A stretch of 34,283 nucleotides of DNA. Origin: Candidatus Fraserbacteria bacterium. Lineage in GTDB: Bacteria > Bipolaricaulota > Bipolaricaulia > RBG-16-55-9. The stretch covers positions 1 through 34,283 of the forward strand of contig JBBIPG010000017.1 of assembly GCA_037442925.1 (NCBI GenBank). Direction: 5' to 3'. A program made the position numbers and the translations under genes. Shown here piece by piece: positions 16,194 to 32,399 of this stretch. Within the stretch, counting starts at the first letter, position 1. Every line of letters starts with the position of its first letter. The notes beneath the pieces were generated by a model, which was not told the origin of the DNA, searched no databases, and saw only the letters and a list, made by a program, of their open reading frames with translations.

Positions 16194-17528
16194 TCACTCC
16201 AGCAGATTCCCCCCCTCGAACTCGTGGGGGATCGTAAGCCCCATGAGTGCAAAGATCGTGGGTGCCACATCCAAGATCGATGGCTGCTTATTGGCCATCT
16301 CGTGCAGCTTGTGTCCCCGCACGTAAACGAGGGCTTCTTCATACGTATGCATCCCCGTGCGAGCTGTGCGCTGGAATAGTCCTTCATTGCCTATGCCAGC
16401 CTTCAGGTCATACCCATTTTGGGGGTGAGCGATGAGTTCCGCCGCTTGAGAGAGGAGTGGCCCCTGATAGATCTCCGCGCGCGTGTAGACCCGCTGGATT
16501 ACAGGATCACCGCTCTCGGGGCCCTTAAGTTCGTAGAGCGCGTCTTTGAGTTCATCCAGCAGCTGTGGAGCATCTTGGGGGTCCACGCTTCCGCCCGTCT
16601 CACGACCCTTCAGGTTGAGATAGATCCGCCCCGGCGTGAGACTATAGGCGACGGAGGACGGATCGAGATCGCTCAGGCTCTGAGCCGCTTTCTTAAAGCG
16701 AAGATACCCCAATTCTGTCAAGTAGCGGTTGAGGTCGACTTCGTAGCGAATATCGCAGAAGCCGTGATCGGAGAGGATCATCAACTGCGTGTCGTCATCG
16801 AGCGTGTCCGCCACTTGCCCGATCAATTCATCTACTCTTGTGTAAAACTCGCAGAAGTCACGATGGCGGGGATGCAAAGTGTCATCTTTGGCATCCCAGA
16901 AGAAGTGATTCATGCGATCGGTCTCCATGATGTGAAGCATGAAGAAATCCCACTCTTGTTCTTCCAAGAGCCGAAAGGCCAGCTTGCCGCGTGCGCGGAG
17001 TGCTTGGAAGATCTCTGCTAGGAAAGCAGTCTGATCACGGTGGGCCAGCCAGGGCTCCGCATCGACGAGGTAGTTGAGTGATTTGAGCAGGGGCACCAGC
17101 GACGCGGGGTAGGTTGCCTTCTCTACAGTCGGGCTAAGAAAATCTCCGATGAGGATGCCCTCGATGGAATCGGGCGGGTACGTTCCAGGCACATTGATGG
17201 CAATGACACGCTTTTGACGTTCGTTCAGGCGCCTCCAGAGGCTCTGTGCCCGAAGGCGTGAAGAGGTGACCACAATGGGATGAAGCTCTGGGTCCCGATC
17301 GGTGAAGCCAAAGATGCCGTGCTTCGCTGGATTGACACCCGTTGAGAACGTAGCCCAAGCAACAGAGGAGATCACAGGGAGAACGGAATTCATCTTCATG
17401 AGAGATCCCTGCCTGATCAAGCGCTGGAAGTGAGGCATCTGCCCCTTCTGACAAGCCTCTTGTACGAAAGAATAGGGTACGCCGTCAATGCCGAGTACGA
17501 AGAGTCGTTTGTCTCTTAGTGTTGTCAT
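16194..17528 (-). CDS. Alkaline phosphatase superfamily protein (type I phosphodiesterase/nucleotide pyrophosphatase family)
   Basis: LGIDGV, SSVAWATFSTG, ETDRMNH, SDHGF, TGMH and ILDVAPTI; start 17528 overlaps the upstream stop (ATGA). Confidence 0.88.
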   Translation of the reverse strand: MTTLRDKRLFVLGIDGVPYSFVQEACQKGQMPHFQRLIRQGSLMKMNSVLPVISSVAWATFSTGVNPAKHGIFGFTDRDPELHPIVVTSSRLRAQSLWRRLNERQKRVIAINVPGTYPPDSIEGILIGDFLSPTVEKATYPASLVPLLKSLNYLVDAEPWLAHRDQTAFLAEIFQALRARGKLAFRLLEEQEWDFFMLHIMETDRMNHFFWDAKDDTLHPRHRDFCEFYTRVDELIGQVADTLDDDTQLMILSDHGFCDIRYEVDLNRYLTELGYLRFKKAAQSLSDLDPSSVAYSLTPGRIYLNLKGRETGGSVDPQDAPQLLDELKDALYELKGPESGDPVIQRVYTRAEIYQGPLLSQAAELIAHPQNGYDLKAGIGNEGLFQRTARTGMHTYEEALVYVRGHKLHEMANKQPSILDVAPTIFALMGLTIPHEFEGGNLLE

Positions 17529-18478
17529 GCTGGCACATCCTTTACCGGAAGATGAGTTTCGTATACCTGAGCCAAGCATAAAGCCAGCTTGAGGGAGGCT
17601 TCGAGATTCCGGGTTGTTACGTGTTCGATGTTGAGTCCTAGAGGTACAGATATCCCCTCGTTCTCCACGAATTCCATAAGTTCTCTAAGAATCTGTTCGG
17701 CCACTTGGGTGGATCGCTCCCCAATTCCGGACTTTTCTCTCAAGATGAAACGCTCGAATTCAGAAGGGATCTCCACTCCCCACCATCGGAGAAAGCGTAC
17801 GTCGGATTCTGACGAGACGGGAGCGAAACTCAGAAAAATCCTCTTTGGCTCCACACGGAGTTCTCGACAACGCTCCTGATAATCTCTGAGTAGTTTCTTC
17901 ATGTGCGCCGCTTCGTAGATCACTTGGCTGATGAAAAACGCGATCCCACTTCTCGCCTTCTCAATGAGGCGCTCGGGCTCGTTGGGGCGGGTAGGGATCG
18001 TGATTCCTCCCAGAAAAAAATCCCCAAAGATAAAAGAACGCCCGATGAGTCGGGCTGCTTCCGCCACCGAGGGACCGGGATAACGAACCCGGCTCGAATC
18101 TCCTCCCACCAACACAAGATTTCGAATGCGATAGTCCCGCCAAGTCTTCATGAGCCACTGTCGTTGGTTGGCCCAGTGGGTGTACACGATGCCGCGATCC
18201 ACAATCACCTCCCCTCGATGATCAAAACGCTCCTGAATGAGGCGAGCAAAAGACCGAGGCTCCATCTTTGGCGTGAAGGGAGTCACTCGAGGATTTCGAG
18301 TCTCCGGGCGCACTTCCGGGATGTTGATCGCCACCACAGGGAGATCATATATGAGCCCTTGCATGCTTTCCAGGCGTGCCTCGATCTCTGCTTGTGGCGC
18401 ACCCGCGGGCGGCGGGACGATCGTATAGATCACGAGCTGCTGCCAAGGATCTTCCATCTTTAACCGGAAGGAATTCAT
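17525..18478 (-). CDS. Methylenetetrahydrofolate reductase-like protein (divergent MetF/MTHFR fold)
   Basis: INIPEV, LVLVGGD, GGITIPTR..EPERLIEK..GIAFFISQVIY and LSFAP..DVRFLRW.GV resemble the MTHFR fold; ATGA-coupled to ribH. Confidence 0.6.
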   Translation of the reverse strand: MNSFRLKMEDPWQQLVIYTIVPPPAGAPQAEIEARLESMQGLIYDLPVVAINIPEVRPETRNPRVTPFTPKMEPRSFARLIQERFDHRGEVIVDRGIVYTHWANQRQWLMKTWRDYRIRNLVLVGGDSSRVRYPGPSVAEAARLIGRSFIFGDFFLGGITIPTRPNEPERLIEKARSGIAFFISQVIYEAAHMKKLLRDYQERCRELRVEPKRIFLSFAPVSSESDVRFLRWWGVEIPSEFERFILREKSGIGERSTQVAEQILRELMEFVENEGISVPLGLNIEHVTTRNLEASLKLALCLAQVYETHLPVKDVPA

Positions 18479-18942
18479 GGCTTGATGGAGTTGAGGGTGT
18501 GGATCAGCTCAATCAAACTCTTCGCAGCTTCCGCGCCTTTGTTCACTTTCGCACCAGCCCGCGCAGCGGCCTGCTCGACGGTATCTGTCGTAAGTACGCC
18601 GAAGACAATGGGAGTCCTCGACTGTAGTGCCAGCTGCGTCAGCCCACATGTCACGGCTTGGCAAATATACTCAAAATGGCGCGTCTCACCCCGAATGACG
18701 CACCCCAGAGGCAAGATTCCATCATAACGTCTTGTCTCGGCCAGTCTTCGCACAGCCTGAGGAAGCTCAAAAGCCCCCGGCACCCAAATCACATCGATGT
18801 CTTTCCCATCCACCCCAAGCTTTGTCAGGGATGTGAGTGCGCCTTTGAGGAGTTTTTGAGTGATGGAGGAATTGAATCGGCTCACGGCCACAGCAATCTT
18901 TAACCCGTCTCCCTGGAGCTTCTGCTTAGACGTCTTGCCCAT
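18475..18942 (-). CDS. ribH: 6,7-dimethyl-8-ribityllumazine synthase
   Basis: [31 protein letters not shown] and NKGAEAA motifs. Confidence 0.97.
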
Positions 18943-20179
18943 CGGCCTTGACAGAGGGCTCCACCGTTTCGCTCGGAAGGACGTGTTCTAGGCGGTGGCC
19001 CAGCTTCTCTTTCTTAGCTTTCAAATACGCATAGTTGTAGCGATTGGGCCGGACCGTGAGCGGAACTTGCTCCATGATCGTTAGACCGTAGCTTTCGAGC
19101 CCGACGATCTTCTTCGGGTTGTTCGTGAGGATGCGGATGGTCGTAAGACCCAGATCCCGAAGGATCTGAGCGCCGATGCCGTATTCTCTTAGGTCTTCCT
19201 TGAATCCCAGCTGCCGGTTGGCGTCTACCGTATCGAGCCCCTGATCCTGCAAGTGATAGGCTCTGATCTTGTTTCCGAGACCGATTCCGCGGCCTTCTTG
19301 ACGCAGATACAAGAAGACGCCTCGACCCTCAGCCTGAATGCGCCGCAGTGCCTCGGTCACTTGGGTGCCACAGTCACACTTGAGCGATCCAAACACATCT
19401 CCCGTAAGACACTCCGAGTGAACGCGCACCAGCACGTTCTCCACGCCATAGACCTCACCCTTGACGAGGGCCAGATGCTCTTTCCCATCCACCAGGCTCC
19501 GATAGGCATGAATCCCGAAATCGCCATAACACGTCGGCAGCTGCGCGGCCGCTATGCGCTCGATCAACACTTCTCGCTCGCTGCGGAACTTGATGAGATC
19601 CGCAATGCTGATCATGTGCAACTGAAATCGGCGGGCGAACTTCTCTAAGTCAGGGAGGCGGGCCATTGTGCCATCTTCATTCATGATCTCGCAGATCACG
19701 GCGGCAGGGAAGAGCCCGGCGAGTCGGGCCAAATCCACGCTGGCTTCCGTGTGGCCTGCCCTCTGCAAGACGCCCCCGGCCTTGGCCCTAAGCGGAAAGA
19801 CGTGACCCGGCTGAACGAGGTCTGCGGGTTTGGTGTGTGAGTCGATGAGCGTTCGGATCGTTTGCGCTCGATCCTGCGCAGAAGTCCCTGTGCTAATGCC
19901 CGTCCGCGCATCCACGGAGACCGTAAACGCACACCCCTTCCCCGTGGATTCGCTTTGTACCATGAGCTTGATCCCCAGCTCATCCAGGCGTTCTTGCGTC
20001 ATGGGCACGCAGATGATCCCTCGAGCGTGCTTGGCCATGAAATTGATCTTCTCCGGGGTCACCTTCTCGGCAGCTACGACGAGATCCCCCTCGTTCTCGC
20101 GGTCCTCGTCATCGACCACAATGACCATCTCACCCCGGCGGATGGCTTCAATTGCATCGTCAATGGAATCGAAAGCCAT
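18926..20179 (-). CDS. ribBA: Bifunctional DHBP synthase / GTP cyclohydrolase II
   Basis: [26 protein letters not shown], then [22 protein letters not shown] and TNNPKK. Confidence 0.97.
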
Positions 20180-20770
20180 TCAATGCCCCCTCTCTTGAAT
20201 CTGCCTCGCGACGTACTTCGCTACCAGATCGAACTCGACGTTCACTCTATCGCTCAACTGTAGCTCATGCAAGGTCGTGGCGCGCAACGTATGAGGAATC
20301 AGAGCCACATCAAAATGCCCCGCTCGAATGTGAAAGGGAGTCAGGCTGACCCCGTCAATGGCCACGCAGCCCTTCTCCACGAGAAGATGGTCGTAACCCG
20401 GATCGATCCGGAAGGTGAAGAGAGAGAACTCCCCTTGGGGTTGAATCGAGACGACTTCTCCCACCGTGTCGACATGCCCCTGCACGAGATGTCCCCCCAG
20501 CCGATCGCTCAGTCTCAAGGGCAATTCGAGGTTGACACAATCACCCGGCCGGAGTGATCCCAGCTTTGTGCAGCGCAAGGTTTCTGGGCTGATTTCAACT
20601 TCGCATTCCCCACGAAGTGAATCTACAGCGATGGCCGTAAGACAGGCTCCGCTGACGGCTACACTGCCTCCTACGGTCAATTCAGAAGAGACAGCCTTGG
20701 AAGCGATCCGCAAGCGCGGTGGAGAGAACTCGCGGACTTCCCCGATTGCCGTGATAATCCCTGTGAACAT
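20180..20770 (-). CDS. ribE: Riboflavin synthase (alpha chain; ribE in Bacillus nomenclature, ribC in E. coli)
   Basis: MFTGII start, GACLT, VNLE, GGHLVQGHVD, DGVSLT, LIPHT and VNVEFD. Confidence 0.96.
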   Translation of the reverse strand: MFTGIITAIGEVREFSPPRLRIASKAVSSELTVGGSVAVSGACLTAIAVDSLRGECEVEISPETLRCTKLGSLRPGDCVNLELPLRLSDRLGGHLVQGHVDTVGEVVSIQPQGEFSLFTFRIDPGYDHLLVEKGCVAIDGVSLTPFHIRAGHFDVALIPHTLRATTLHELQLSDRVNVEFDLVAKYVARQIQERGH

Positions 20771-20779
20771 CTTTATGCT

Positions 20780-20832
20780 ATCATAGCGAAATGCCGACGG
20801 AATTTGCAATCCCGAAGCGCTCTGAGTAGACT
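20780..20832. promoter_or_regulatory. Putative back-to-back promoters for ribE and yidC sharing a palindromic -35
   Basis: TTGCAA at 20804-20809 is its own reverse complement. Plus strand: 17 bp then TAGACT (20827-20832). Minus strand: 18 bp then TATGAT (20785-20780). Confidence 0.5.
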
Positions 20833-20872
20833 GGGCGCGATTTCAAATCGGGAGGGCACACCTCAAGTTCGC

Positions 20873-22549
20873 ATGAGTTGGACTCGTAGAAGATGGGTCG
20901 TTTTGGCCGTCGGCCTGCTGTGGGCTTTAGCGGGAGCTTCCGTAGAGGCGGCTGACCTACACACACCCATCCCAACCGTACGCATCCTCGAGCGCGAAGG
21001 CTATCGCGAGATCGAAGTCGTAACCAAGCTCGCTTCCTATCTTTTCTCGACTCAAGGGGGAGTGCTTCGAAGCATCTACTTGCATTTCGCTCCCATGGGA
21101 ACCCCTCCCGTTGAACTCATCCCGGACGCAGAGACTCGACTTGACCCTGCGAGCGGCGAACTTAAGCGCAGTTACGTGCGGAACGCCCTCTTCCCCTTTC
21201 GGCTCGTGGTGGACGGCACACCCACAGATGAGCTCGAGTATGCCTTTGAATCGCAAGACTCCGGACAGCAGCTTCGCTTGCGCTTCACTGCCGAGGTCCA
21301 GGGAGTCATCATTAGAAAGACGTTCACTGTAAGTGAGAACCCCTACTATTCCGTGAGGTTTGATCTCGAGGTGATCAACTCCACGGCTGCGCCTCTCTCG
21401 CTTTCGCAAGGCATCCAGCTTTTTGTGGGGCATGGTGTGGGAAAAGTCACAGATTCTCGTGGGCAGATTCGCTATCTCTTTGGAAGTCAAATCACGGATC
21501 GCCCCCTGGAATCCTCTGAATTCAATGGCTTGGGATTCGTTGGGCAGGGTCTTGTCCTCTTTCTCAAGAATCTCCCCAGCGACGGACCGCGTTCCCCACT
21601 TTCGGGTGAGGCCACGGGTCACGAGACGGGCTTGGGAATTGAGATCAAGCTGCTCACGCTCTTAGCACGAGAATCTAAGACGTACTCGTTTGAGCTCTAT
21701 GCTGGGCGTGCCAAGTATACACTCTTAGAGCATGAAGGCCTCGGACAGCTCGATCCACCCGGCTTCTTCTCCCAGCTGCTCATCTGGGTCGTCGAGTTGC
21801 TGGACTGGCTCTATGGGCTGACGAGCAACTATGGGTGGGCGATCATCCTCTTCACCTTGATCACGCGGATTGTGCTCTTCCCCCTGACGCGCCAGCAGTT
21901 TCATTCCATGGCCAAGATGGCGGAGCTGCGCCCCAAGCTGGAAAAGCTTCAGCAGCGTTACCCTACCCTGCGACGGCTCAAGGAGCTTCATCCCAACATG
22001 AGCCAAGAGGAGCTATTCAAACGGGATCGGGAGAACCGTCGAGCCCTGCAAGAGAAGATGATGGAGCTCTATCGTGAGGAGAAAGTCAACCCCCTGGGCG
22101 GATGCCTGCCGGTGCTCATACAGTTTCCCATCTTGATCGTCCTGTGGCAGGCTATTGTCTATAGTGCGGAGACGATCCACCTAAGCCCCGGCTTCCTCTG
22201 GATGAATGACCTCTCGCTGCGCGATCCCTACTATCTGATCGTGGCGCTCACAGCCATCGCCATGCTGATCCAGACAAAGACCACCCCCACGCTGACGACA
22301 TCCACTCAGGGTCCGAATCCCATGATCTTCATGCTCTTCTCCGTTGCCTTGATGGTCTTGTTCTTGAAGGATTTCCCGGCAGGGCTCTGGCTCTACTACT
22401 TGCTCACCACCCTCTTTCAAGTGGGGCAGCAGGTGTTCATCAACTGGGAACTCAAGCGCCTCCGTCTGGAGAAGGAGGCAGCAGTCGCTGTGACCTCGGA
22501 AGCCAGAACCGAGGGGGACAAAGCTCCAAGAGAATCACGAACAAAATGA
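20873..22549 (+). CDS. yidC: Membrane protein insertase YidC
   Basis: N-terminal signal/TM and large periplasmic domain, then NYGWAIILFTLITR, SMAKMAELRPKL, NPLGGCLP.LIQFPI, FLWMNDLS..DPYY and PAGLWLYY. Confidence 0.95.
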   Translation: MSWTRRRWVVLAVGLLWALAGASVEAADLHTPIPTVRILEREGYREIEVVTKLASYLFSTQGGVLRSIYLHFAPMGTPPVELIPDAETRLDPASGELKRSYVRNALFPFRLVVDGTPTDELEYAFESQDSGQQLRLRFTAEVQGVIIRKTFTVSENPYYSVRFDLEVINSTAAPLSLSQGIQLFVGHGVGKVTDSRGQIRYLFGSQITDRPLESSEFNGLGFVGQGLVLFLKNLPSDGPRSPLSGEATGHETGLGIEIKLLTLLARESKTYSFELYAGRAKYTLLEHEGLGQLDPPGFFSQLLIWVVELLDWLYGLTSNYGWAIILFTLITRIVLFPLTRQQFHSMAKMAELRPKLEKLQQRYPTLRRLKELHPNMSQEELFKRDRENRRALQEKMMELYREEKVNPLGGCLPVLIQFPILIVLWQAIVYSAETIHLSPGFLWMNDLSLRDPYYLIVALTAIAMLIQTKTTPTLTTSTQGPNPMIFMLFSVALMVLFLKDFPAGLWLYYLLTTLFQVGQQVFINWELKRLRLEKEAAVAVTSEARTEGDKAPRESRTK

Positions 22550-23010
22550 ATGAGCAGATCAAGCAGGCCGTCGAGCAATACTTTCGCGGGTTACTCACCG
22601 TGCTGGGTGAGACGGCGGAGATCCAGTACAAGAAGGAAGGAGAGAATGAGCTTTTCATCAACCTTCAGGGGGTTAGCACGTTCGATGGACTCGACGCGAA
22701 GCTCCTTAGAGCCCTAAGTTATCTCGCCGAGATTGCGATGCGACGTCGGTTAGGAACCGGCATTCGGATTCACCTCGACATCAACAATCAACGGGCCAAG
22801 AGGCTGGCAGAGATCCAGCAGCTGGCTCGTCGGTTGGCGGACGAAGCCGTGCGAGAATCGAAGAAGATTCAGCTCGATCCCATGGAGACCTACGAGCGCA
22901 AGGCTATCCATGAGGCGCTGAGCGGCTATGAGGGAGTCCGCACGTACAGTGAAGGCAGGGGCGCCGAGCGCCGCGTGGTCATTGAGCCCGTCCGTCCATC
23001 TGACTCTTAG
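22546..23010 (+). CDS. jag: Jag/EloR (KhpB)-like RNA-binding protein, short form (KH-like + R3H)
   Basis: LDPMETYERKAIHEAL...TYSEGRGAERRVVI is an R3H domain; ATGA-coupled to yidC. Confidence 0.85.
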   Translation: MNEQIKQAVEQYFRGLLTVLGETAEIQYKKEGENELFINLQGVSTFDGLDAKLLRALSYLAEIAMRRRLGTGIRIHLDINNQRAKRLAEIQQLARRLADEAVRESKKIQLDPMETYERKAIHEALSGYEGVRTYSEGRGAERRVVIEPVRPSDS

Positions 23011-24068
23011 TCCCAGGGGAGAACCCACTTCCAGAACGGGCCGCGGAAGTACGTCCCGATAATGATGAGCAAGACGAATAGTAGCATAGAGAGCGTAAAG
23101 ACCGCCACAGTCATGGGGCGCTCTCGGAGGCGTCGGCCCACCGGAGCACTTCGATCGGATCTCCAGAACTCCAAGTAAGGCTCAATGTACGGGATCGCAA
23201 GCAAGAACAGAACAAACAGTCCAGGCAGGATCACTCCGCCTAGGGCGATCGAATTTAAAAACCCACCCAAGTTGGGAGAAATAGCTAGAAGCTCTTGAAT
23301 ACCCAAGAAATACCAAGGTGCCTTCTCCGGGTTGGGCGTGAAAGCCGGCGTGGCAGCTTGTTCCAAGGGCGCATCCACAAGCAGGGCGTAGATGCTTAAA
23401 CCGCCTAGCAAGAAGAAGAAGATGGTCGTAATCACATAGAGGAAATAGGGGTACGTCAGGATCTCTTCTTTCTCTGTCTCTTGGGCGGGGATGCGCTTGG
23501 AGAAGACCTGGAGCATCATCTCTACGGTCTTCTCGGTGAAGGGGTACTGCGACGGGATCTCTTTCACTCGGTCTTGTTCTAGAGTATAGCGGAGCAGATC
23601 GCTCAGCACTCGAAAGTCTTCTGGATCTCCGCCTCCGTCCACCAGAGCCGGAGCGCGTCGGCGCAGGTCTTTCAGGCGCTTGAGTGTAATAGCCTGAGCG
23701 GAGTGAACCTCTGCCAGCGGCACATGCTCCGCGCAATAATCGAGTAGATCTGCCAGTAAGCCAGGGTGGATCTCGAGCGCCTCGGCGACCTCGTAGCCGG
23801 GGACTTCGAGCTCGAGATCCTCTGTAACAGCCATCTGACACGAGAGCCGCCACTTCTTCTCGATCTTGTCTTTGAGCAAGTCCTTTTCATTGGCGTTGGG
23901 CTCTCCGCCGCCCTTCAGCACGCGCACCGCACACGTAGAGCACGTTCCTCGTCCACCGCAGGTGGCCGGAAGATTGCGGTCATACTTCTTCTCTTGAATG
24001 AATTTCAAAAGATTCGTGCCTGCAGCAACCTCGAAATCCTGTTGGCCGAGAATCGTGACCTTAGGCAT
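23007..24068 (-). CDS. Fusion: NqrF-like [2Fe-2S] ferredoxin domain, helical linker, cytochrome b subunit IV (PetD/QcrC-like)
   Basis: CGGRGTCSTC...RLSCQ ([2Fe-2S]); C-terminal TYPYFL, DAPLE, PNPEKAPWYFLGIQELL (Qo-loop equivalent), LAIPYIE and GTYFRGP.W with 3 TM segments. Confidence 0.85.
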   Translation of the reverse strand: MPKVTILGQQDFEVAAGTNLLKFIQEKKYDRNLPATCGGRGTCSTCAVRVLKGGGEPNANEKDLLKDKIEKKWRLSCQMAVTEDLELEVPGYEVAEALEIHPGLLADLLDYCAEHVPLAEVHSAQAITLKRLKDLRRRAPALVDGGGDPEDFRVLSDLLRYTLEQDRVKEIPSQYPFTEKTVEMMLQVFSKRIPAQETEKEEILTYPYFLYVITTIFFFLLGGLSIYALLVDAPLEQAATPAFTPNPEKAPWYFLGIQELLAISPNLGGFLNSIALGGVILPGLFVLFLLAIPYIEPYLEFWRSDRSAPVGRRLRERPMTVAVFTLSMLLFVLLIIIGTYFRGPFWKWVLPWD

Positions 24069-24074
24069 ACTCGA

Positions 24075-24989
24075 TCACCTTGCCCCTTCTGACCCGCGGG
24101 CGATCTCTTGTAGCTTCTGGTTCACAGCGCGTCCTCCGGGCAAACAGCGCGTGGGCGGGGCTTTCCCTTGAGCAAGCGCTTGAGCATACTCTTCACAAGT
24201 GAGATATCCGCAGGCCTCACAATCGAAACCGGGCAACACCGCACGGAGCGCGCGGGCTTTCTCAGTCAGTAGGCCTCTCGCCGGTGCAGGCCAGCGAATC
24301 ACCAAGGGCTTGAAGAGTTCAATCGCAAGATCGCTCTCCACGGGCACTTGACAAGCGAGAAAGATCGGAAGAGCACGCTGCCGGGGGGTTAATATGGGGC
24401 CATAGTGCTTCTCTTCCCAATTCTCGGCTCCTTCGCGCACCCTCACACGACAACTGGCGCACGATCCCTGACGGCCGCATTGGGTGATCAAGCGATAGCC
24501 CGCATCCTCCAGCACTGTAAGCAGCAGTGTCCCTTTTTGAGAAGCGAGTACGCTTCCATCGTTGGCGATGGCGACGAAATGGCGGGGCCGAGCAGTCTCG
24601 CGAACTCGCTCTGCGGCATAGAGGGCTACCAGAGCAAAGCCCCCCAGTAGTAAGGGCTGCATGAGGTTCGGAATATGAGCGAAGCCCCATAAGCTCAAGG
24701 CCAAAATGAGAAGCAATACAACAGTAATCCCCAAATAGCCTTGAGCGCGGAGTATCTGAGGTATATCCGCCACGGACAATCGTTCGTGAGTGGCTTCGAT
24801 GGCCTGCACGAGCAGCTGACAGACGAGCCCACCCAGAACAATCCCCACGATGATCGTGTCCAGACGTAGCTGCCAGAGGAGCGAGAGCAGGATGATCCCA
24901 ACGAGGGCCATTCCAGCAAGCATGAGCGCCAACCCGCGCGTGAGGCGCACCTCTCGCTGCCAACGGGCACGCCGTTGTTGAACGCTCAT
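24075..24989 (-). CDS. Membrane protein with a [2Fe-2S] ferredoxin domain and a C-terminal RnfB-type FeS domain
   Basis: About 4 N-terminal hydrophobic helices; CGRQGSCASC...LACQ; LPGFDCEACGYLTCEEYAQAL...RCLPGG. Start 24989 has a GGAGG RBS and an ATGA overlap. Confidence 0.82.
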   Translation of the reverse strand: MSVQQRRARWQREVRLTRGLALMLAGMALVGIILLSLLWQLRLDTIIVGIVLGGLVCQLLVQAIEATHERLSVADIPQILRAQGYLGITVVLLLILALSLWGFAHIPNLMQPLLLGGFALVALYAAERVRETARPRHFVAIANDGSVLASQKGTLLLTVLEDAGYRLITQCGRQGSCASCRVRVREGAENWEEKHYGPILTPRQRALPIFLACQVPVESDLAIELFKPLVIRWPAPARGLLTEKARALRAVLPGFDCEACGYLTCEEYAQALAQGKAPPTRCLPGGRAVNQKLQEIARGSEGAR

Positions 24990-26011
24990 GCGCGACCTCC
25001 ATAGCTCTTGGGCAGGGTCCACCTATCGATGAGGGGGACGAATAAGTTCATGAGCAATACAGAGAATGTGACGCCTTCTGGATCGGGAGTCAGTGCCCGT
25101 AGGATCAGTATGAGCAATCCAATCGCGATCGCGTAGATCCACTTGCCCCAGGCAGTCATGGGACTTGTGACGGGATCTGTGGCAATAAAGAAGGCTGTCA
25201 AGAGCGTGCTTCCGGCAAGCACGTGAATCAGCCAGCCTCCTCGAAACACCGTGGGAAAGAACATCTCCAGCAATGACTGGCCGATGGCAATAGTTGCGAG
25301 CATCACGATGGAGATGCGCCAGTCGATAGCGCGAGTCAAGAGTAGCCAGCCTCCCGCGAGCAGCAGCAAGAGTCCCGACGTTGCCCCCATGGCTCCGGGG
25401 GCATTGCCTATAAACAATTCTCCCAGCGGCGGTGTCGGTTGGTTCTGAAGCGCAGCCACGAGAGGTGTGATGGTGGTCGTCACGTCCGCAGGCGGTGCCC
25501 ACTCTACGAATCCTCCTGATCCACCCCAGAAAGGCTGCGAGAATTGGCTCATGAACACGGGAAAGAGGACGAGTAAGAATGCCTTGCCGACCAGGGCGGG
25601 ATGAAAGACGTTGTATCCCAGCCCGCCGAAGAGTTCTCGGGATAACATGGCAGCGGCCGCACCCAGAGCCACGATCCACAATGGAAGGTTCGGGGGCAGG
25701 AGGAGAGTGTATAAAAGAGCGAGTATGAGCAAACCTTCGGTGGGCGGACGTCGTCGGATGAAACTGAAGGCCAATTGCACAACTCCTCCCGCGATCACGG
25801 CAACGAGAAAGACGGCCAGAACGTGCCATCCAAAGAGATAGATCGCGCCTGCCGTCGCAGGCAACACGGCCAGAAGAGGCATGAGCATATAGCGTTGAAT
25901 GCTGACCCCATCTCGCAGGTAGGGCGCGCTCGAGGCAGAGAGATCACTCCCACCGTAGAGAAGATCACTCAGGCTCTGGCGGAGGATGGGTCTAGATACT
26001 CTGTGATTCAT
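24986..26011 (-). CDS. rnfD: RnfD/NqrB family membrane flavoprotein
   Basis: APYLRD, TEG, LFGGLGYNVFHPALVG, DVTTTITPL (FMN-Thr site), ATDPVTSP and PEGV..LLMN..PLID. Confidence 0.88.
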   Translation of the reverse strand: MNHRVSRPILRQSLSDLLYGGSDLSASSAPYLRDGVSIQRYMLMPLLAVLPATAGAIYLFGWHVLAVFLVAVIAGGVVQLAFSFIRRRPPTEGLLILALLYTLLLPPNLPLWIVALGAAAAMLSRELFGGLGYNVFHPALVGKAFLLVLFPVFMSQFSQPFWGGSGGFVEWAPPADVTTTITPLVAALQNQPTPPLGELFIGNAPGAMGATSGLLLLLAGGWLLLTRAIDWRISIVMLATIAIGQSLLEMFFPTVFRGGWLIHVLAGSTLLTAFFIATDPVTSPMTAWGKWIYAIAIGLLILILRALTPDPEGVTFSVLLMNLFVPLIDRWTLPKSYGGRA

Positions 26012-27432
26012 GATTCGAGTCGCTCCTCACGAATGGCCCGCTTGCCCTTCTGGATCTCGTCCATTACGGAGATCTTGGAGGGGCAGACGTAGCTACAGAG
26101 CCCACACTCAACGCAAGCGAAGATATCGAGTTCTTCAGCTCGCCGGAGATCGCCTTGGTGCGCGGCCTCCGCGATCCAAATTGGGAGTAGATTCTGCGGG
26201 CAGACTTCGACGCAATACCCGCAGTGAACGCAGGGACGTGGCGTGCCGTTCAAGCCCGTCGTAGCTACCCGTGGACCTCCCAGCAGAGGGGGAATGATGC
26301 GCGTATACGAATCGTGTCTCAACCCCGGCCGAGCGCCTCCGAAAAGTTTCTTAGTGGGTTCACGCAGCACAACGAGCGCACGTGTGTCGCGCAGAATGGG
26401 TGTGTTCATGTCGTTGACGGCTATTCCTCTCATGGGGCCACCCAGAAGGTTTCTAGAAGGCGTTTCGTGACCAAACTCACGAAGTAGATCTCCGATGGGC
26501 GTGCCAATGCGCACCCGCGCGTTGACCGGACGGCGGACGGCTGAGCCGCCTAGTGAAATTACGCGCTCGATGAGAGCCTTCCCTTCGAGCACCGCCTCGT
26601 AGGCCGCGAGGACTTGCTGCACATCGCAGACGACTGCTCCGATGGCCGTAGCATGCTTTCCAGATGGAACGTCCAGATTGAGCAGTGTCTTGACGAGAAC
26701 TTCATCTTCTCCCTGCGGGTATTTCGGCAGAAGGGGATGTATGTAAAGCCAGTCGTGGTAGTCCATGCGGTTCTCTAGTTCTTCGAGGAGGCGAGGCTGA
26801 TCGTAGCCGATGCCCACGTGCGCATCGACGTTGCCCAGTGCGCTCTTGAGAATCTTGATGCCCGTGACGAATCCCTCAAATTCCTCATAGAGAAGAGCCA
26901 GATCTCCCCGTAGATAGGGTTCTGTCTCCACGGCGTTGATCAGGAGATACTTCATCTTGCCGGGATCGACATCGGAAGAGCGATACGCTGTGGGGAAACC
27001 CGCCTTGCCCAGAGCTGTGACACCCGCCTCGTACAGTATGCGCCCCAGCTCGTCAGCTCCCCAACGCTCGAAGTTGCCCTTGGGCAGCTTCAAGTACGTC
27101 CATTCATCCCGGCCGTCGGATTCGATCGTCACATATGTCGTAATGGCTTGGCTCAGGGGATGAGCCCCCTCATCGATGGCTGTGACTTTCCCGGAGATCG
27201 GAGCATGGACAGGCGTTGAGATCATCTCATCCGAGCAGGCGATGATCTGTCCGGCCTTGACTCGATCACCCACGGCCACCAGCGAAGCGGTCTCTGAACC
27301 AAAGCCCTGCCGCAGCGGAATCTTGACTCGGGTTGGGACCGGTACTGACACGATGCGTGTGCTGGGGGTGCCCTCAAAGCGGCTGAAGTAGTGACCGCCT
27401 TTGAAGGTCTTGAGCGTGCCGACGATGGCCAT
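26008..27432 (-). CDS. rnfC: RnfC/NqrA-like subunit with two [4Fe-4S] motifs
   Basis: FKGGH, VGDRVKAGQ, HAPISG, AGVTALGKAGFPT, INAVETEPY, KYPQG, RIGTP, GGPMRG, CVHCGYCVEVCP and CVECGLCSYVCPS. Confidence 0.88.
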   Translation of the reverse strand: MAIVGTLKTFKGGHYFSRFEGTPSTRIVSVPVPTRVKIPLRQGFGSETASLVAVGDRVKAGQIIACSDEMISTPVHAPISGKVTAIDEGAHPLSQAITTYVTIESDGRDEWTYLKLPKGNFERWGADELGRILYEAGVTALGKAGFPTAYRSSDVDPGKMKYLLINAVETEPYLRGDLALLYEEFEGFVTGIKILKSALGNVDAHVGIGYDQPRLLEELENRMDYHDWLYIHPLLPKYPQGEDEVLVKTLLNLDVPSGKHATAIGAVVCDVQQVLAAYEAVLEGKALIERVISLGGSAVRRPVNARVRIGTPIGDLLREFGHETPSRNLLGGPMRGIAVNDMNTPILRDTRALVVLREPTKKLFGGARPGLRHDSYTRIIPPLLGGPRVATTGLNGTPRPCVHCGYCVEVCPQNLLPIWIAEAAHQGDLRRAEELDIFACVECGLCSYVCPSKISVMDEIQKGKRAIREERLES

Positions 27433-28211
27433 CAGCTGCGCCCCTCCTCGGGCGGCACGCTGAAGTCGTCTTTGCGGATCCGCCAGAAGTGGATGGCGAT
27501 CAAGAGCACAATCAAGACCGGCAAGAGGAAGACGTGGATCACATACCAGCGAATGAGCGAGAACTGATTGAGATTATTGCAGTTGCTCACGCCCAGAAGC
27601 CCCTGTCGAACTTCTTCCCCCACAAAGGGGACGTTTTGCGCGATGTTGCAGGCGATCTTGGCAGCGTAGTACCCCAACTGATCCCAAGGCAGAATATAGC
27701 CGGAGAAGGCGAAGAAGATCGTGATCAAAAAGAGCAAGACGCCGATGATCCAGTTGAACTCCCTGGGTTTTTGGTAGGCTCCGGTGTAGAAGACGCGCAG
27801 CATGTGGAAGAAGACGACGGCCACCATCAGCTCGCCGGCCCACTTGTGCAGGTTTCTAAAATAGCGTCCCAGCGAGACTTGATTCATGATGTAGCGGATC
27901 GTGTCGAAGGCCCGCTCCACCGAGGGCACGTAATAGAACATCAAGTAGATACCAGACACGACTAAGATCACAAAGAGCCAGAAAGCCGTCACGCCCATCC
28001 AGAGCCAGCTGTAGCTCATGCGCATGGATTTCTTGTTGATCGTGGCCGGCAGGACGTGCACGAAGAAGTTGCGGCGGTTCATGGCCAGATAGTCTGTTTC
28101 TGTCTGTGGGAGGTGCTCTCGGCGGAAGATGGAGATCCAGAGTCTGCTGCGGCGTAGCCGCTGCATGGTGAGCACGAGCTTATCGATGATCCCGTAGAAG
28201 AGCAGGTTCAT
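27432..28211 (-). CDS. Cytochrome b, N-terminal half (cytochrome b6/QcrB-like)
   Basis: MFYYVPS, RNLHKWAGELMV..FFHMLRVFYTGAY..PREFNW, GYILPWDQ and RWYVIH...AIHFWRIRK; all four heme-ligating His are present. Confidence 0.93.
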   Translation of the reverse strand: MNLLFYGIIDKLVLTMQRLRRSRLWISIFRREHLPQTETDYLAMNRRNFFVHVLPATINKKSMRMSYSWLWMGVTAFWLFVILVVSGIYLMFYYVPSVERAFDTIRYIMNQVSLGRYFRNLHKWAGELMVAVVFFHMLRVFYTGAYQKPREFNWIIGVLLFLITIFFAFSGYILPWDQLGYYAAKIACNIAQNVPFVGEEVRQGLLGVSNCNNLNQFSLIRWYVIHVFLLPVLIVLLIAIHFWRIRKDDFSVPPEEGRS

Positions 28212-28215
28212 GTCA

Positions 28216-28848
28216 TCATCCTCGGCAGGGGACGCAATCGCTGCCGTCGGGTAGCGGTCCCTCTACCATGGCTCGCTTGTCGGGATCGAGATAGAGATTA
28301 TGGCCGACGCCCTCGCCTGTCTTGCGGCTTAACTCATCCGTGAGATTGACAATGCTCTTGTCCACTTGGAGGCGTCCATCGGCGGTGAGCTCGATCTGAT
28401 AGAAAGGGAGCGGTCGCGGGGCAGGTCCTCCCAGCACGCGACCATCTCGGGCGAATCTGCTTCCGTGGCAGGGGCAGTAGGCATGAACGGTGGGATATTC
28501 TGGATTGGGTGGTCCGAAGGGCTTATAAGAACACCCCAAATGCGTACAGATGGCGGAGACGGCCTGAAAGCCTTGGGGGCTGCGAAAGATATACACTTGT
28601 TTGGCCTCTAAGAGCCTCATGTCTCCCACTTGATAATCTTGGGGTCGGCCGATGGTGAAGACCGTCGAGGGCTCGTAGTTCATCTTAGGCAAGATGAATG
28701 AGATGATGCTGGTGAAGACTCCACCAAGCGAGAGTGCGAAAGCGCCCAATCCGAGGCGGGCAAAGAATTTTCGCCGTGTGATGTGGCGCGCTTGGGGCGA
28801 CTCCCCAAACTCAGCGACATCTCGGCCATCACGTCCTAGCTTCCGCAT
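28216..28848 (-). CDS. Rieske [2Fe-2S] protein of a Rieske/cytochrome b complex (Tat-exported)
   Basis: Twin-arginine motif TRRKFF plus a TM helix; CTHLGC and CPCHGSRF boxes; GPAPRPL. Confidence 0.93.
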   Translation of the reverse strand: MRKLGRDGRDVAEFGESPQARHITRRKFFARLGLGAFALSLGGVFTSIISFILPKMNYEPSTVFTIGRPQDYQVGDMRLLEAKQVYIFRSPQGFQAVSAICTHLGCSYKPFGPPNPEYPTVHAYCPCHGSRFARDGRVLGGPAPRPLPFYQIELTADGRLQVDKSIVNLTDELSRKTGEGVGHNLYLDPDKRAMVEGPLPDGSDCVPCRG

Positions 28849-28953
28849 CGCCCTGTTTTCAGCACCTTAGTTCACGCTGTGGAGAGATCGTACTCACCTT
28901 GGACCACAAGATCCATGATCCGTGTCATCTCAAACATGGGGGAGTCTGCTCGG

Positions 28954-28982
28954 ATTATAGCTGTGACGAAAGAAGAGGTCAA
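28954..28982 (-). promoter_or_regulatory. Putative sigma70 promoter of the Rieske/cytb-Rnf operon
   Basis: Minus strand TTGACC, 17-bp spacer, TATAAT, about 105 bp upstream of the Rieske start. Confidence 0.7.
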
Positions 28983-29003
28983 ACTCGTTTAATGCTCCCG
29001 GCG

Positions 29004-29033
29004 TTGCTCAAGGTCCGCCATTCGTTCTATAAT
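29004..29033 (+). promoter_or_regulatory. Putative sigma70 promoter of the aldehyde dehydrogenase gene
   Basis: TTGCTC, 18-bp spacer, TATAAT; GGAGG RBS before ATG 29082. Confidence 0.55.
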
Positions 29034-29081
29034 GGCAGAAAGATCTTTGATCTAAAAGATGGCGAACATGGAGGCAGAGCG

Positions 29082-30560
29082 ATGCGCTATAAGAACTGGA
29101 TCGGGGGCAAGTGGGTCGAGGCCAAGAGTGGAAAGTACTTCTCATCCACCAACCCCGCTGACCCCTCGGATGTACTGGGCGAATTCCCGCGCTCAGAGAG
29201 ACACGATGTGGATGCGGCGGTCAACGCAGCAGATCGGGCGTTCACGGAGTGGAGCCGAGTGCCCGCTCCGAAACGGGGAGAACTCCTCTTCGAAGTCGCA
29301 CAGCTACTGAAAGAGCGTAAGGAAGAGCTTTCCAGGCTCATGACCCGCGAGATGGGCAAAGTGCTCAACGAAGCGCGTGGCGACGTACAAGAGGGCGTGG
29401 ACATGACGTACTACATGGCCGCTGAGGGCCGTAGGCTTCTGGGTTACGTTACGCCATCAGAACTGCCCAACAAGACATGTTACGGCGTTCGTCGCCCTAT
29501 TGGGAGAATTGCCGTGATCACTCCCTGGAATTTCCCCTTGGCGATTCCCACGTGGAAGATCATGCCGGCGCTGGTGGCAGGCAACACGGTGGTATGGAAA
29601 CCGGCGAGCGACACTCCCAGACTTGCGTACGAGCTGGCAAAGATCTTTGAGGAAGTTGGTCTTCCCGAGGGCGTGGTGAATCTCGTCTTTGGCAGCGGCA
29701 GCAGTGTGGGAATCCCGCTGGCCCAACATCCCAAGATCGACATGATCAACTTCACCGGCAGCACCGACATCGGTAGAGAGATCTATCAGTATGGCGCAGG
29801 CAAGCTGAACAAAGTCCATCTGGAAATGGGGGGCAAGAACCCTGTCATCGTCATGGAGGATGCCGACCTGGAGCTGGCACTGGATGGAATCCTCTGGAGC
29901 GCCTTTGGGACTTCGGGACAGCGGTGCACGGCTTGCTCGCGCTTGATCATCCACAAACCCGTCTACAAGACTCTTCTGGATATGCTGGTGGAGAGGACGA
30001 AGAAGCTGAAATTGGGCAATGGTCTTGATCCTAGGACCGATGTGGGTCCCGTGGTCAATCCCATCCAGCTCAAGCGCATTCACGAGTATGTCGAGCTAGG
30101 CATGAAGGAAGGAGCGAAACTTCTGGTCGGGGGCAGAATCGCCAAAACAGGCGAATTGGCCAAGGGATCATTCTATGAGCCGACGATCTTTGCCGACGTG
30201 ACGCCCCAGATGCGAATCTTCCAAGAAGAGATCTTTGGGCCGGTGCTGGCCGTCACGCCTGCCAAAGACTACGACGAGGCCATTCGTCTGGCCAATGATA
30301 CAACGTATGGGCTCTCTTCATCGATCTTCACGCGCGATATCAATCGGGCTCAGCGTGCAATTGATGATCTGGAAGCGGGCATTACGTATGTGAATGCCGG
30401 GACGATTGGGGCGGAAGTCCATCTACCTTTCGGCGGTGTGAAGAACACGGGCAACGGCGGTCGCGAAGCAGGTCAGACAGCCATTGATGAGTGTTGCGAA
30501 TGGAAGACGGTGTACATCGATTACTCCGGCAGACTCCAGAAAGCCCAGGGGATCGAATGA
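29082..30560 (+). CDS. NAD(P)+-dependent aldehyde dehydrogenase family protein
   Basis: [39 protein letters not shown] and PFGGVK; start set to 29082 by the RBS. Confidence 0.95.
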
Positions 30561-30617: not shown

Positions 30618-30730
30618 CCATCCAGGTGGGGTCCTGGCGCTTAGGGCAAGCGCGATCAAGAAAAGACACCCATCAAAAGAGGAAGGCAAGATACGAAGCG
30701 AAAACAGGCAGGCAAAAGGAGGAGGTTGGC

Positions 30731-31846
30731 ATGTGCCACAAAATTCGTTCATTCTTCTGGCTCGTAGCACTGGCGTTTGTCGTAGGGGTGTGGACGAGTC
30801 AAACCGCCGTTCAGGCACAGCAGGTCATCGATATCTGCGAAGCAATCGACACCTCAAGCAGTATCAGCAATAATCAACTGGCTCTTGAGATTCAAGGGTT
30901 CAAAGCCGCCCTCAACCAAGTACTGCTGCCGGCCGCCGAGGCAGGATCGACGATACGCTTGGCGATTGTAGGGTTTAGTACCAATGTGCAGACCTTCCTC
31001 CCTCTGACACTCGTGAACTCGGCGAACAGGGCCGCCATCGAGGCAGCCCTGGATGCCGTGCAGAACACGACGGATCGCCGATTGACGAATATGGGAGGAG
31101 CCATCAACCAATGCGTCAGCCTCTTGTCTGCAAACACCGTACCTCGGCGAGTGATTGACCTCTCCACGGACGGTCGACCGACGACGGGACCATCCACCAC
31201 GACTGCGGCCACAAACGCCAAAAATGCTGGCATAGAACTTTGGACGATGGGCATAAGCCCCAGCGCAGATAATACTTTGCTAAGCCAAATCGCCGGCTGT
31301 CCGCCTGCCAGCCCCAATTGCGGGGCCAAGAACTTTCCCGTGGCGACCTTCAATGACTTCGCACAAGCCGTCAGAGAGAAGCTGGAACTGATCACCAATG
31401 GCGGTGTCCAGCAGCCACCAATCGCTGTGGCAGATAGTACGAGCACCCAACCTGGCACACCCGTCGTGATCTCCGTGCGCAACAATGACTCTGATCCAAA
31501 CGCTGATCCTCTTACGATCACCAACGTCACTCAACCCGCCAACGGCACGGTGGTCATCAACCCCGACGGCACCGTGACGTACACGCCGAGAAGCGGCTTC
31601 ATCGGCACGGACACTTTCACATACACGATCAGCGACGGTAGGGGTGGAACGGCGACCGCGACTGTCACAGTCTTCGTAGGCGTCAGTCCGCCGGGCCCGC
31701 CAGGACCGGGACCAGGGCCTGGGCCAGGTCCTGTGGGCATCCCGGATCTCTCGACGTCTGGCTATCTGCTTTTGATGATCTTGTTCTCGCTGTTGCTCGT
31801 GAGAGAACTCTATAAGCGTGGCGCGCGTTCTCGCACGGACTCGTAG
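30731..31846 (+). CDS. Secreted VWA-domain + Ig/cadherin-like protein with Pro-Gly linker and IPTL-CTERM-like sorting signal
   Basis: Signal peptide; MIDAS DTSSS...T...STDG; PIAVAD..NDSDP..GTVTYTP..GTDTFTYTISDG; (GP)n; IPDLSTSG + TM + basic tail; AGGAGG RBS. Confidence 0.88.
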   Translation: MCHKIRSFFWLVALAFVVGVWTSQTAVQAQQVIDICEAIDTSSSISNNQLALEIQGFKAALNQVLLPAAEAGSTIRLAIVGFSTNVQTFLPLTLVNSANRAAIEAALDAVQNTTDRRLTNMGGAINQCVSLLSANTVPRRVIDLSTDGRPTTGPSTTTAATNAKNAGIELWTMGISPSADNTLLSQIAGCPPASPNCGAKNFPVATFNDFAQAVREKLELITNGGVQQPPIAVADSTSTQPGTPVVISVRNNDSDPNADPLTITNVTQPANGTVVINPDGTVTYTPRSGFIGTDTFTYTISDGRGGTATATVTVFVGVSPPGPPGPGPGPGPGPVGIPDLSTSGYLLLMILFSLLLVRELYKRGARSRTDS

Positions 31847-31880
31847 AACAAGAAAGAAAGAAAAAGAGAACGGGGGAGGG

Positions 31881-32399
31881 ATGCGCAAGCACGCAGCCAG
31901 CAACTCTCTTGCGATCTGGGGTCTTGCGGTCAAATCTCTGCTCGTCTTTGCGGGGACGTTGGCTCTGGCTATCACCTTTCTCCTTAGCCCTATCAGTCGG
32001 GCGTTGCGAACCCAGCTGGAAGTGATTCTTGCGCAGACAACGGGCACATTTCTGAGTTGGTTCGATCCTTCCGTGGCGATTCTTGGCTCTACGGTGAGAA
32101 TCAACGACTTCTCTGCCGAGATCATCCCGGCCTGCACCGGCCTATTCACCACATCTATTTATATTGCTGCCGTGCTCGCTTATCCGAGCAGATGGAAGGG
32201 TAAGCTTCTGGGAGTTGCGCTCGGAGTCTTTGGCATTTTGGCCCTCAACTGGATTCGCATTGTGAGTCTCTTGCTGGTTGGGGCATACTATCGGCCGGTA
32301 TTTGAATTTGCGCATCTATTTGTCTGGCGATCCCTCGTCATCTTCGCTGCGGCGCTTCTGTGGCTCTACTGGGTCAAACGCTTCACCCATGCGACGTAG
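31881..32399 (+). CDS. xrtH: Exosortase H-like transpeptidase (exosortase/archaeosortase family)
   Basis: Catalytic-type residues in IIPACTG (Cys), LNWIRI (Arg) and FAHLFVW (His); multi-TM; directly downstream of an IPTL-CTERM-like substrate. Confidence 0.8.
   Translation: MRKHAASNSLAIWGLAVKSLLVFAGTLALAITFLLSPISRALRTQLEVILAQTTGTFLSWFDPSVAILGSTVRINDFSAEIIPACTGLFTTSIYIAAVLAYPSRWKGKLLGVALGVFGILALNWIRIVSLLLVGAYYRPVFEFAHLFVWRSLVIFAAALLWLYWVKRFTHAT

Follow-up and report, generated by a model that had tools for sequence, protein, structure and literature searches.

A six-gene operon of Bipolaricaulota combines a Rieske/cytochrome b unit with the remains of an Nqr-type pump and is a candidate quinol-bifurcating complex

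The closest described counterparts of the operon reported here are the Rieske/cytochrome b complexes of anammox bacteria encoded by Kuste4569-4574 and Kustd1480-1485. For these complexes the model of Hauser et al. 2025 has an extra haem where the two monomers meet on the cytoplasmic side, surrounded by His43/Arg247 and His62/Arg266/Lys267 and adjoining an NAD(P) oxidoreductase, and the case for quinol bifurcation to NAD(P)+ or ferredoxin is built on Rieske potentials and models (PMC12954380). The present operon lies in a stretch of 34,283 nucleotides from Candidatus Fraserbacteria bacterium, phylum Bipolaricaulota (contig JBBIPG010000017.1; hereafter the window), and encodes a Rieske protein, the N-terminal part of a split cytochrome b, RnfC-like and RnfD-like subunits, a membrane protein with iron-sulphur (Fe-S) domains (orf5), and a fusion of a [2Fe-2S] domain with cytochrome b subunit IV (orf6). 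An earlier inspection of the sequence (the original prediction) had drawn the anammox analogy, which proves stronger than was then visible. Operon and anammox complexes share a b6-type split cytochrome b of one clade with the extra-haem His/Arg/Lys residues. Both also have subunit IV as a separate protein, the Ser/Phe motif in the Rieske protein, and an Fe-S module on the cytoplasmic side to which the low-potential electron is proposed to pass (PMC12954380). The operon differs in that this module derives from Rnf/Nqr and not from a GltD/Nfn-like flavin adenine dinucleotide (FAD) enzyme, in lacking the haem cN Cys and a multihaem cytochrome c, and in having subunit IV fused to a [2Fe-2S] domain. 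It most likely works like the NAD(P)-reductase-linked anammox complexes, with a different cytoplasmic module. We give even chances to the specific reading that its products would form one membrane complex that bifurcates quinol electrons, passing the low-potential electron through cytoplasmic Fe-S domains to RnfC and on to NAD(P)+ or ferredoxin, with no sodium pumping.

An arrangement nearer in gene content was mentioned by Takami et al. 2012, who note that in Ca. Acetothermum autotrophicum (OP4C155-0162) the rnfCDGEAB genes share a cluster with genes for a Rieske protein and a cytochrome b, and who offer no mechanism (PMC3267732). That cluster is described, in the same text, as a normal rnfCDGEAB set plus two extra genes, with subunit IV unmentioned, whereas the operon of the window is without G, E and half of A. 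Judged by the description, OP4C155-0162 is likely the nine-gene version of the operon that recurs among its relatives (the long form, as distinct from the six-gene short form). No description of the six-gene form or its mechanism was found in the literature covered, which took in few subscription journals, so a fuller account may exist; the accessible parts of PMC3362086, PMC5317091 and PMC6037941 do not describe the cluster. The short form may be an undescribed architecture, the long form having been mentioned before.

All six open reading frames (ORFs) run on the reverse strand from 28848 to 23007 (Table 1), with intergenic distances of 4, -1, -4, -4 and 6 nt in operon order, and their coordinates and domain matches reproduce the order, spacing and domains first read from the sequence. 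Coordinates and overlapping stops and starts likewise bear out that the Rnf/Nqr-type genes are enclosed by the two halves of the split cytochrome b. No RnfA, RnfE or RnfG gene and no c-type cytochrome gene lies within the operon, as had been noticed, although orf5 holds half of an RnfA/NqrE protein (see below); neither a GltD/Nfn-like FAD oxidoreductase nor a multihaem cytochrome c is among the six genes. In an assembly made independently from run X1, which may be the source sample, single contigs span the cytochrome b-RnfC junction and the RnfC-RnfD-orf5-orf6 junctions.

Table 1. Coordinates (window numbering) of the operon genes and associated features.
Feature	Position	Strand	Remarks
Sigma-70-like promoter candidate	28954..28982	-	TTGACC-17-TATAAT, 11/12 consensus bases; 106 nt before Rieske start
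Rieske [2Fe-2S] protein	28216..28848	-	PF00355; 210 aa, twin-arginine N-terminus, one transmembrane helix
Split (b6-type) cytochrome b	27432..28211	-	PF00033; 259 aa
Codon of His52 of cytochrome b	28056..28058	-	Aligns with anammox His43/His62
RnfC/Fe-S-NqrA-type subunit	26008..27432	-	TIGR01945, 340.9 bits (cut-off 245.95); 474 aa
RnfD/NqrB-type membrane subunit	24986..26011	-	TIGR01946, 236.5 bits (cut-off 207.05); 341 aa
Degenerate flavinylation motif of RnfD	25463..25486	-	Ala at -1 replaced by Ile; Thr182 retained
orf5	24075..24989	-	Fer2 + PF04060; 304 aa; ATG start (longest ORF starts 25022)
RnfA/NqrE remnant in orf5	24660..24932	-	Matches long-form RnfA profile positions 106-194; cluster Cys lost
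orf6	23007..24068	-	Fer2 + weak ExtQ/subunit IV match, 51.7 bits (cut-off 150); 353 aa

RnfD homologues occur in 88 of the 184 genomes of the phylum, from which 40 loci were fetched, followed by 11 further stretches. The arrangement is not unique to the contig: the order Rieske-cytochrome b-C-D-orf5-orf6 is conserved in 9/9 related short-form loci of three families, with orf6 split into a soluble part and subunit IV in two, orf5 duplicated in one, and the Rieske gene cut by a contig end in one. This synteny across relatives rules out misassembly. Ten loci have the complete nine-gene order, in which RnfG, RnfE and RnfA stand between D and a shorter orf5; of the remaining fetched loci, some are truncated where the contig stops and the others are Nqr-like or Rnf operons of the usual kind. 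Close homologues are labelled Bipolaricaulota or Acetothermia by their sources, and 27 of the 28 phylum genomes with an operon-type cytochrome b belong to one order. Among the 35 genomes of that order, RnfA/E (PF02508) is found in 0/11 short-form genomes versus 20/24 others, RnfG (PF04205) in 0/11 versus 20/24, and ApbE (PF02424) in 0/11 versus 19/24; the short-form genomes are kin, so these figures reflect one or two loss events and not eleven. In the host genome (94% complete) none of these three families has a match anywhere, while control genomes do match. There is no separate rnf/nqr core or apbE gene, and assembly of RnfC and RnfD with RnfA, RnfE and RnfG encoded elsewhere is ruled out.

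In a tree of RnfC and RnfD, short-form sequences fall within the long forms; two changes are needed on the best topology, and a single short-form clade is not rejected (approximately unbiased test, p-AU 0.346). Identities of RnfC and cytochrome b across short-form loci are 54-92%. The C/D pair branches apart from canonical Rnf, as the sister group of operons that encode an NqrA with Fe-S clusters and often an NqrF (support 1.0). By these trees and gene orders, the Rnf half of the operon descends from an Nqr-type lineage, and the six-gene form is a deletion derivative of the nine-gene form that has lost G, E and half of A. In the likely history, an Nqr-type pump whose NqrF had shed its FAD/NADH domain was joined by a Rieske/cytochrome b unit, the genes of which flank the pump. 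The suggestion that the Rieske/cytochrome b module took the place of RnfA, RnfE and RnfG has to be revised: it would have joined a complete Rnf/Nqr-type operon first, with the deletion coming later. In a search beyond the phylum, and among the matches listed, Rieske or cytochrome b genes flank none of the 71 RnfC loci that remain when the nine Rieske-linked loci are set aside, many of the contigs being short.

Two relatives are unusual. One, a long form (locus L049, genome G086, 90% complete), has no Rieske gene at the head of the operon and is without operon-type cytochrome b, orf6 and haem-copper oxidase, and its RnfC has a deleted Gly-rich loop; this operon may be a ferredoxin-fed pump by itself. 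In the deepest-branching member (L038 and L270, genome G094, 76% complete) the [2Fe-2S] subunit comes straight after C-D-G, A/E lies on a different contig, and neither cytochrome b nor orf6 was detected. An NqrA-like subunit with two [4Fe-4S] motifs is encoded with NqrB-F in several phyla (L096-L098, L109, L149, L158, L160, L165); these operons are an Rnf/Nqr intermediate.

Set beside Rnf (RnfABCDGE; accessible parts of PMC9588780, PMC11889175 and PMC12174285), the operon has the RnfC fold with two [4Fe-4S] motifs, the riboflavin Asp of RnfD and an RnfB-type FeS domain. It lacks RnfG, RnfE, the A/E cluster, the flavin mononucleotide (FMN) consensus of RnfD, ApbE and a polyferredoxin RnfB, and this makes the U-shaped electron path and sodium pumping impossible. 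Of the RnfA/RnfE dimer with its four cluster cysteines only the Cys-less C-terminal half of RnfA remains, and RnfG with covalent FMN is missing, together with ApbE, from the 11 short-form genomes. With Na+-NQR (NqrA-F; accessible parts of PMC9325719 and PMC10643135) the operon shares NqrB-type signature residues and an N-terminal helix in D, an NqrA-like insertion in C, and NqrF-like [2Fe-2S] domains; it differs in having Fe-S clusters in the C subunit and in lacking the NqrF FAD/NADH domain, NqrC, NqrD and half of NqrE. The Rieske boxes, all four haem His and the Qo (quinol-oxidising) motif APWY of subunit IV are present. On gene content and motifs, the operon is neither an Rnf nor an Nqr and has the core features of a Rieske/cytochrome b complex.

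The scar of the deletion lies in orf5, which consists of the C-terminal half of RnfA/NqrE, a membrane anchor, a [2Fe-2S] domain, and a C-terminal PF04060 FeS domain of the RnfB/AcsC type; its cluster cysteines are all conserved among relatives. A profile of the orf5 membrane region matches long-form RnfA/NqrE at E ~1e-10, with RnfA/NqrE proteins ranking directly below the orf5 proteins, and in the reverse search with an RnfA profile orf5 is the sole match among the 1971 called genes of the host genome (E 0.0013). A novel origin of this membrane domain is ruled out by the two-way match. In orf6, a [2Fe-2S] domain (residues 1-93) closest in structure to NqrF (Z 14.2, rmsd 1.9, 91 aligned residues) is joined by a helical linker (~100-195) to subunit IV; for the linker (95-200) no usable Atlas match was obtained, the fold searches being dominated by the ferredoxin domain.

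The two core Rnf subunits have fared differently, as scored on the RnfD cofactor residues named in the accessible parts of the Rnf and Nqr structure papers. The complete RnfD flavinylation consensus, D-x4-A-T-P, is present in 0/10 short forms versus 48/49 other sequences; the Thr is mostly retained, while the motif Ala and the FMN-contact Arg (Arg130 equivalent) are each found in 0/10. Short-form RnfD retains 74% of 44 conserved columns. In short-form RnfC all 8 Fe-S Cys are present in 10/10 sequences and 96% of 32 otherwise conserved columns are retained; in the window protein both [4Fe-4S] motifs are intact, the NqrA-like insertion is C-terminal, and the model has the RnfC fold (pLDDT 89.4; TM-score 0.81-0.83; Foldseek E 1.7e-38 to 8ahx_C). 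The alignments indicate that the cofactor residues of RnfD are lost selectively and the Fe-S ligands of RnfC kept. A metal-ligand role for RnfD His137 is ruled out, since only 6/10 short forms have it.

The operon cytochrome b has all four haem His (122, 136, 226, 241) and an N-terminal extension common to the anammox Kuste4571/Kustd1481 orthologues. Its best matches in three anammox genomes (Brocadiaceae) span nearly the whole protein, extension included, at 38-41% identity, and it clusters with those orthologues and with relatives neighbouring a GltD/Nfn-like oxidoreductase (FastTree support 0.913). His52, Arg246 and Lys247 align with anammox His43/Arg247 and His62/Arg266/Lys267 and are conserved in 20/20, 20/20 and 19/20 relatives. 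The His52 column is His in 80/80 nearest metagenomic cytochromes b among the matches listed; in the third anammox complex another residue takes this place, as in two of the three other cytochromes b of the host genome, the remaining one aligning poorly there. Cytochrome b6f resembles the operon in its split cytochrome b and subunit IV, b6-like His spacing and C-terminal Arg; the operon differs in lacking the haem cN/ci Cys and cytochrome f and in having covalently tethered cytoplasmic Fe-S domains.

The QN (Qi) site is marked by the haem cN Cys in the b6f type and by a His/Asp pair in the bc1 type. There is no Cys at cytochrome b residues 64-75 in 20/20 relatives, whereas the anammox proteins have it; with the Cys present in 44/80 nearest metagenomic clade members among the matches listed, its absence is common in the clade. 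In a hand alignment, the bc1 QN-site His/Lys/Asp positions read Arg/Val/Ile. These features suggest that the cytochrome b has a Qo site but no QN site that can be recognised, and that electrons likely leave it on the cytoplasmic side. Anammox-type cytochromes b with the extra His are widespread in metagenomes: among the matches listed, a GltD/Nfn-like gene lies near 30/80 nearest loci, many of which also have multihaem cytochromes, and the mechanism proposed for the anammox complexes may be common beyond anammox bacteria. RnfC/D/G/A/E genes stand beside 0/80 of these listed loci, many of them on short contigs.

At the potential-tuning positions of the operon Rieske protein the Ser is retained and the Tyr replaced by Phe. 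The Ser is retained in 18/18 relatives, as in anammox Kustd1480, while the three unrelated Rieske proteins of the host genome have Gly there. For Kustd1480, with the Ser/Phe pattern, the accessible text gives a measured potential of +335 mV (PMC12954380). A C-terminal CxxC of the Rieske protein (window 28216-28240) is found in 9/10 short forms and 0/9 long forms and is never followed by His. Elsewhere in the host genome (G000:C38:19102-19764), a second, orphan copy of the gene, 77% identical, has an RND/MMPL transporter gene on one side and the gene of a metal-sensing repressor on the other; the stretch fetched there contains no cytochrome b gene.

In the mechanism we favour, quinol would be oxidised at the APWY Qo site. 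The first electron would go to the high-potential Rieske cluster, from there to a cytochrome c whose gene lies outside the operon, and finally to a high-potential acceptor such as a haem-copper oxidase. The second would cross the membrane through haems bP and bN and reach an extra haem, which His52 of each of the two cytochrome b monomers would hold. From there it would move through the [2Fe-2S] domain tethered to subunit IV and the orf5 clusters to the two RnfC [4Fe-4S] clusters, RnfD and the RnfA remnant now serving mainly as a membrane scaffold that holds RnfC and orf5. With a Qo site, no recognisable QN site, a likely cytoplasmic exit, and a partner that has Fe-S clusters and a lost membrane path, quinol bifurcation is the simplest reading. 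Haem-copper oxidase genes are found in 24/27 genomes of the order with operon-type cytochrome b versus 2/8 without it, these genomes being kin and not independent. The host encodes carbon monoxide dehydrogenase/acetyl-CoA synthase (CODH/ACS) and four 2-oxoacid:ferredoxin oxidoreductase gamma domains, and so has a use for low-potential electrons. More tentatively, at somewhat under even chances, we suggest that an order of Bipolaricaulota built a nine-gene hybrid of a bifurcating Rieske/cytochrome b unit and an Nqr-type pump and then deleted the pump, leaving a minimal six-gene quinol-to-NAD(P)+/ferredoxin enzyme.

Several observations weigh against this mechanism. The anammox extra haem is an AlphaFold3 prediction and bifurcation there a proposal, by the accessible text of PMC12954380. 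Three of the 27 cytochrome b carriers (90, 84 and 61% complete) have no detected oxidase, and the operon itself encodes no cytochrome c acceptor. In the host genome the quinone-pathway proteins MqnA/D were not found and the MenB match is below cut-off. NuoF above the curated cut-off occurs in 0/35 genomes of the order, and the C-terminal family of NDH-2, an insensitive one, has no match in the host genome, so these organisms may need the operon for NADH oxidation; the sole NuoF-like gene of the host lies within a molybdopterin dehydrogenase operon. The riboflavin Asp of RnfD (Asp279 here) is retained in 10/10 short forms, and the equivalents of the NqrB quinone-site residues Gly141 and Glu157 are present in the window RnfD and each in 7/10 short forms. 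In RnfC, Lys151, Asn270 and Thr273, near-invariant in 18 canonical proteins, are changed in both forms; these we presume to be FMN contacts, the functional labels of the cleft positions being taken from NuoF. Loss of these three positions makes FMN/NAD binding by RnfC uncertain.

The strongest alternative is a quinone loop fed by NADH or ferredoxin, in which RnfC takes electrons from NAD(P)H and RnfD delivers them through riboflavin to quinone at an NqrB-like site. The low-potential electron of cytochrome b would also enter there, the site acting as an external Qi, and the quinol would be re-oxidised by the Rieske/cytochrome b half; in the long form that electron would return to quinone through the Nqr-type pump. 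The sister relationship of the RnfC/RnfD pair to Fe-S-NqrA operons with NqrF, the structural closeness of the orf6 [2Fe-2S] domain to NqrF, and the lack of canonical NuoF noted above all agree with such a loop, as do the NqrB-like N-terminal helices of long-form RnfD, with Glu144/Glu157 equivalents in 12/12. Riboflavin genes lie, on differing sides, in the fetched stretch of 6/9 short and 7/13 long loci, and an aldehyde dehydrogenase gene is near 5/9 short loci versus 1/13 long ones. In short-form RnfD, however, the riboflavin hydrogen-bond residues are eroded (Asn203 equivalent 3/10, Asn200 5/10, Thr162 4/10), and the first amphipathic helix is lost, with both helices lost in 2/9 aligned sequences. 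The Gly141 equivalent, replacement of which is said to block quinone, is present in only 5/12 long forms, and Hauser et al. argue that such a direction wastes energy in the anammox complexes (PMC12954380, accessible text). On balance we consider the loop rather unlikely.

Distinctly less probable is that RnfC has no flavin and the operon is a quinol-ferredoxin wire, exchanging single electrons with ferredoxin or a partner such as CODH/ACS and never with NAD(H). The altered RnfC positions named above would agree with this, similar decay being seen in Fe-S-NqrA relatives, as would the terminal RnfB/AcsC-type domain of orf5 and the deletion of the Gly-rich RnfC loop in one long-form genome. That genome, however, is the one that also lacks cytochrome b, and the rest of the cleft (Asn166, Glu169, Glu171, Tyr238-Gly241) is retained in 10/10 short forms, against 4, 5 and 6 of 15 Fe-S-NqrA proteins for Asn166, Glu169 and Gly241, respectively; this better preservation suggests that a ligand is still bound.

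Two co-transcribed modules (Rieske/cytochrome b/orf6 and RnfC/RnfD/orf5), connected by nothing more than the quinone pool or soluble carriers, would be an improbable arrangement. In one long-form genome the Rnf part occurs by itself, and no cytochrome b or orf6 was detected in the deepest-branching member; as long as its pump is intact, the Rnf part can thus do without the other module. The nesting of the Rnf genes between the cytochrome b halves with overlapping stops and starts, and an NqrF-derived domain on subunit IV, speak for a single complex; moreover, the pump-less remnant was never seen without operon-type cytochrome b (present in 11/11 short-form genomes), and that cytochrome b, having no canonical QN site, needs another electron exit. 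An assembly artefact or decaying pseudo-operon, to which adapter-like errors at two places in the window and the eroded RnfD cofactor residues might point, is barely credible given the same gene order in 9/9 short-form loci of three families, open frames throughout, identities of 54-92%, and conservation of all Fe-S Cys of the RnfC and orf5 clusters.

Should quinol bifurcation be correct, the operon would show, in a smaller and independently assembled system with another cytoplasmic module, the mechanism that anammox complexes are proposed to use. The pumped and unpumped forms would then make a natural experiment in the coupling of quinone-based bifurcation to flavin-based ion pumping. What has passed for Rnf in these bacteria would be no pump at all in 11 genomes and otherwise an atypical hybrid of Nqr descent, and the energy metabolism of acetyl-CoA-pathway Bipolaricaulota would need re-reading.

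The near-consensus promoter originally proposed is present as a candidate upstream of the Rieske gene; the number of promoter-like sites in the scan is at chance level (3 observed versus 2.7 expected in shuffles), so the candidate is favoured only by its quality and position. The operon is flanked by a divergent aldehyde dehydrogenase gene on one side and a convergent yidC-jag pair on the other, with riboflavin synthesis genes just beyond; the riboflavin and aldehyde dehydrogenase genes lie in window 17525-22549 and 28899-30560. An identical 13-base stretch occurs at window 24362-24374 and 6168-6180 (0 expected by chance) and presumably resembles a sequencing adapter. At its copy in orf5 a few residues near a conserved Trp differ from the independent assembly and the frame is unbroken, which points to a small assembly error in the window's orf5.

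Other loci of the host and related genomes bear on the same protein families. Complex I genes occur without a canonical NuoF in the host (G000:C80, C50) and order-wide, which suggests a complex I without its NADH module in the order. A 33 kb host contig (G000:C19; L072, L073) encodes three further Rieske and cytochrome b proteins together with a molybdopterin enzyme; multihaem cytochromes are numerous there and have as many as 18 CxxCH motifs. A stand-alone protein of 362 residues with an RnfC/NuoF-like FMN domain is encoded at L074:11871-12959 (G000:C5). Anammox and related planctomycete genomes contain an Rnf-like operon (L117, L121, L127, L144, L146, L150, L163) in which RnfC is short at its N-terminus, a single long gene is of the A/E type, and a [2Fe-2S] protein has 550 residues. 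Within the window, positions 30626-32399 encode a surface protein with vWA and Ig-like domains and a C-terminal membrane segment, directly before an exosortase gene.

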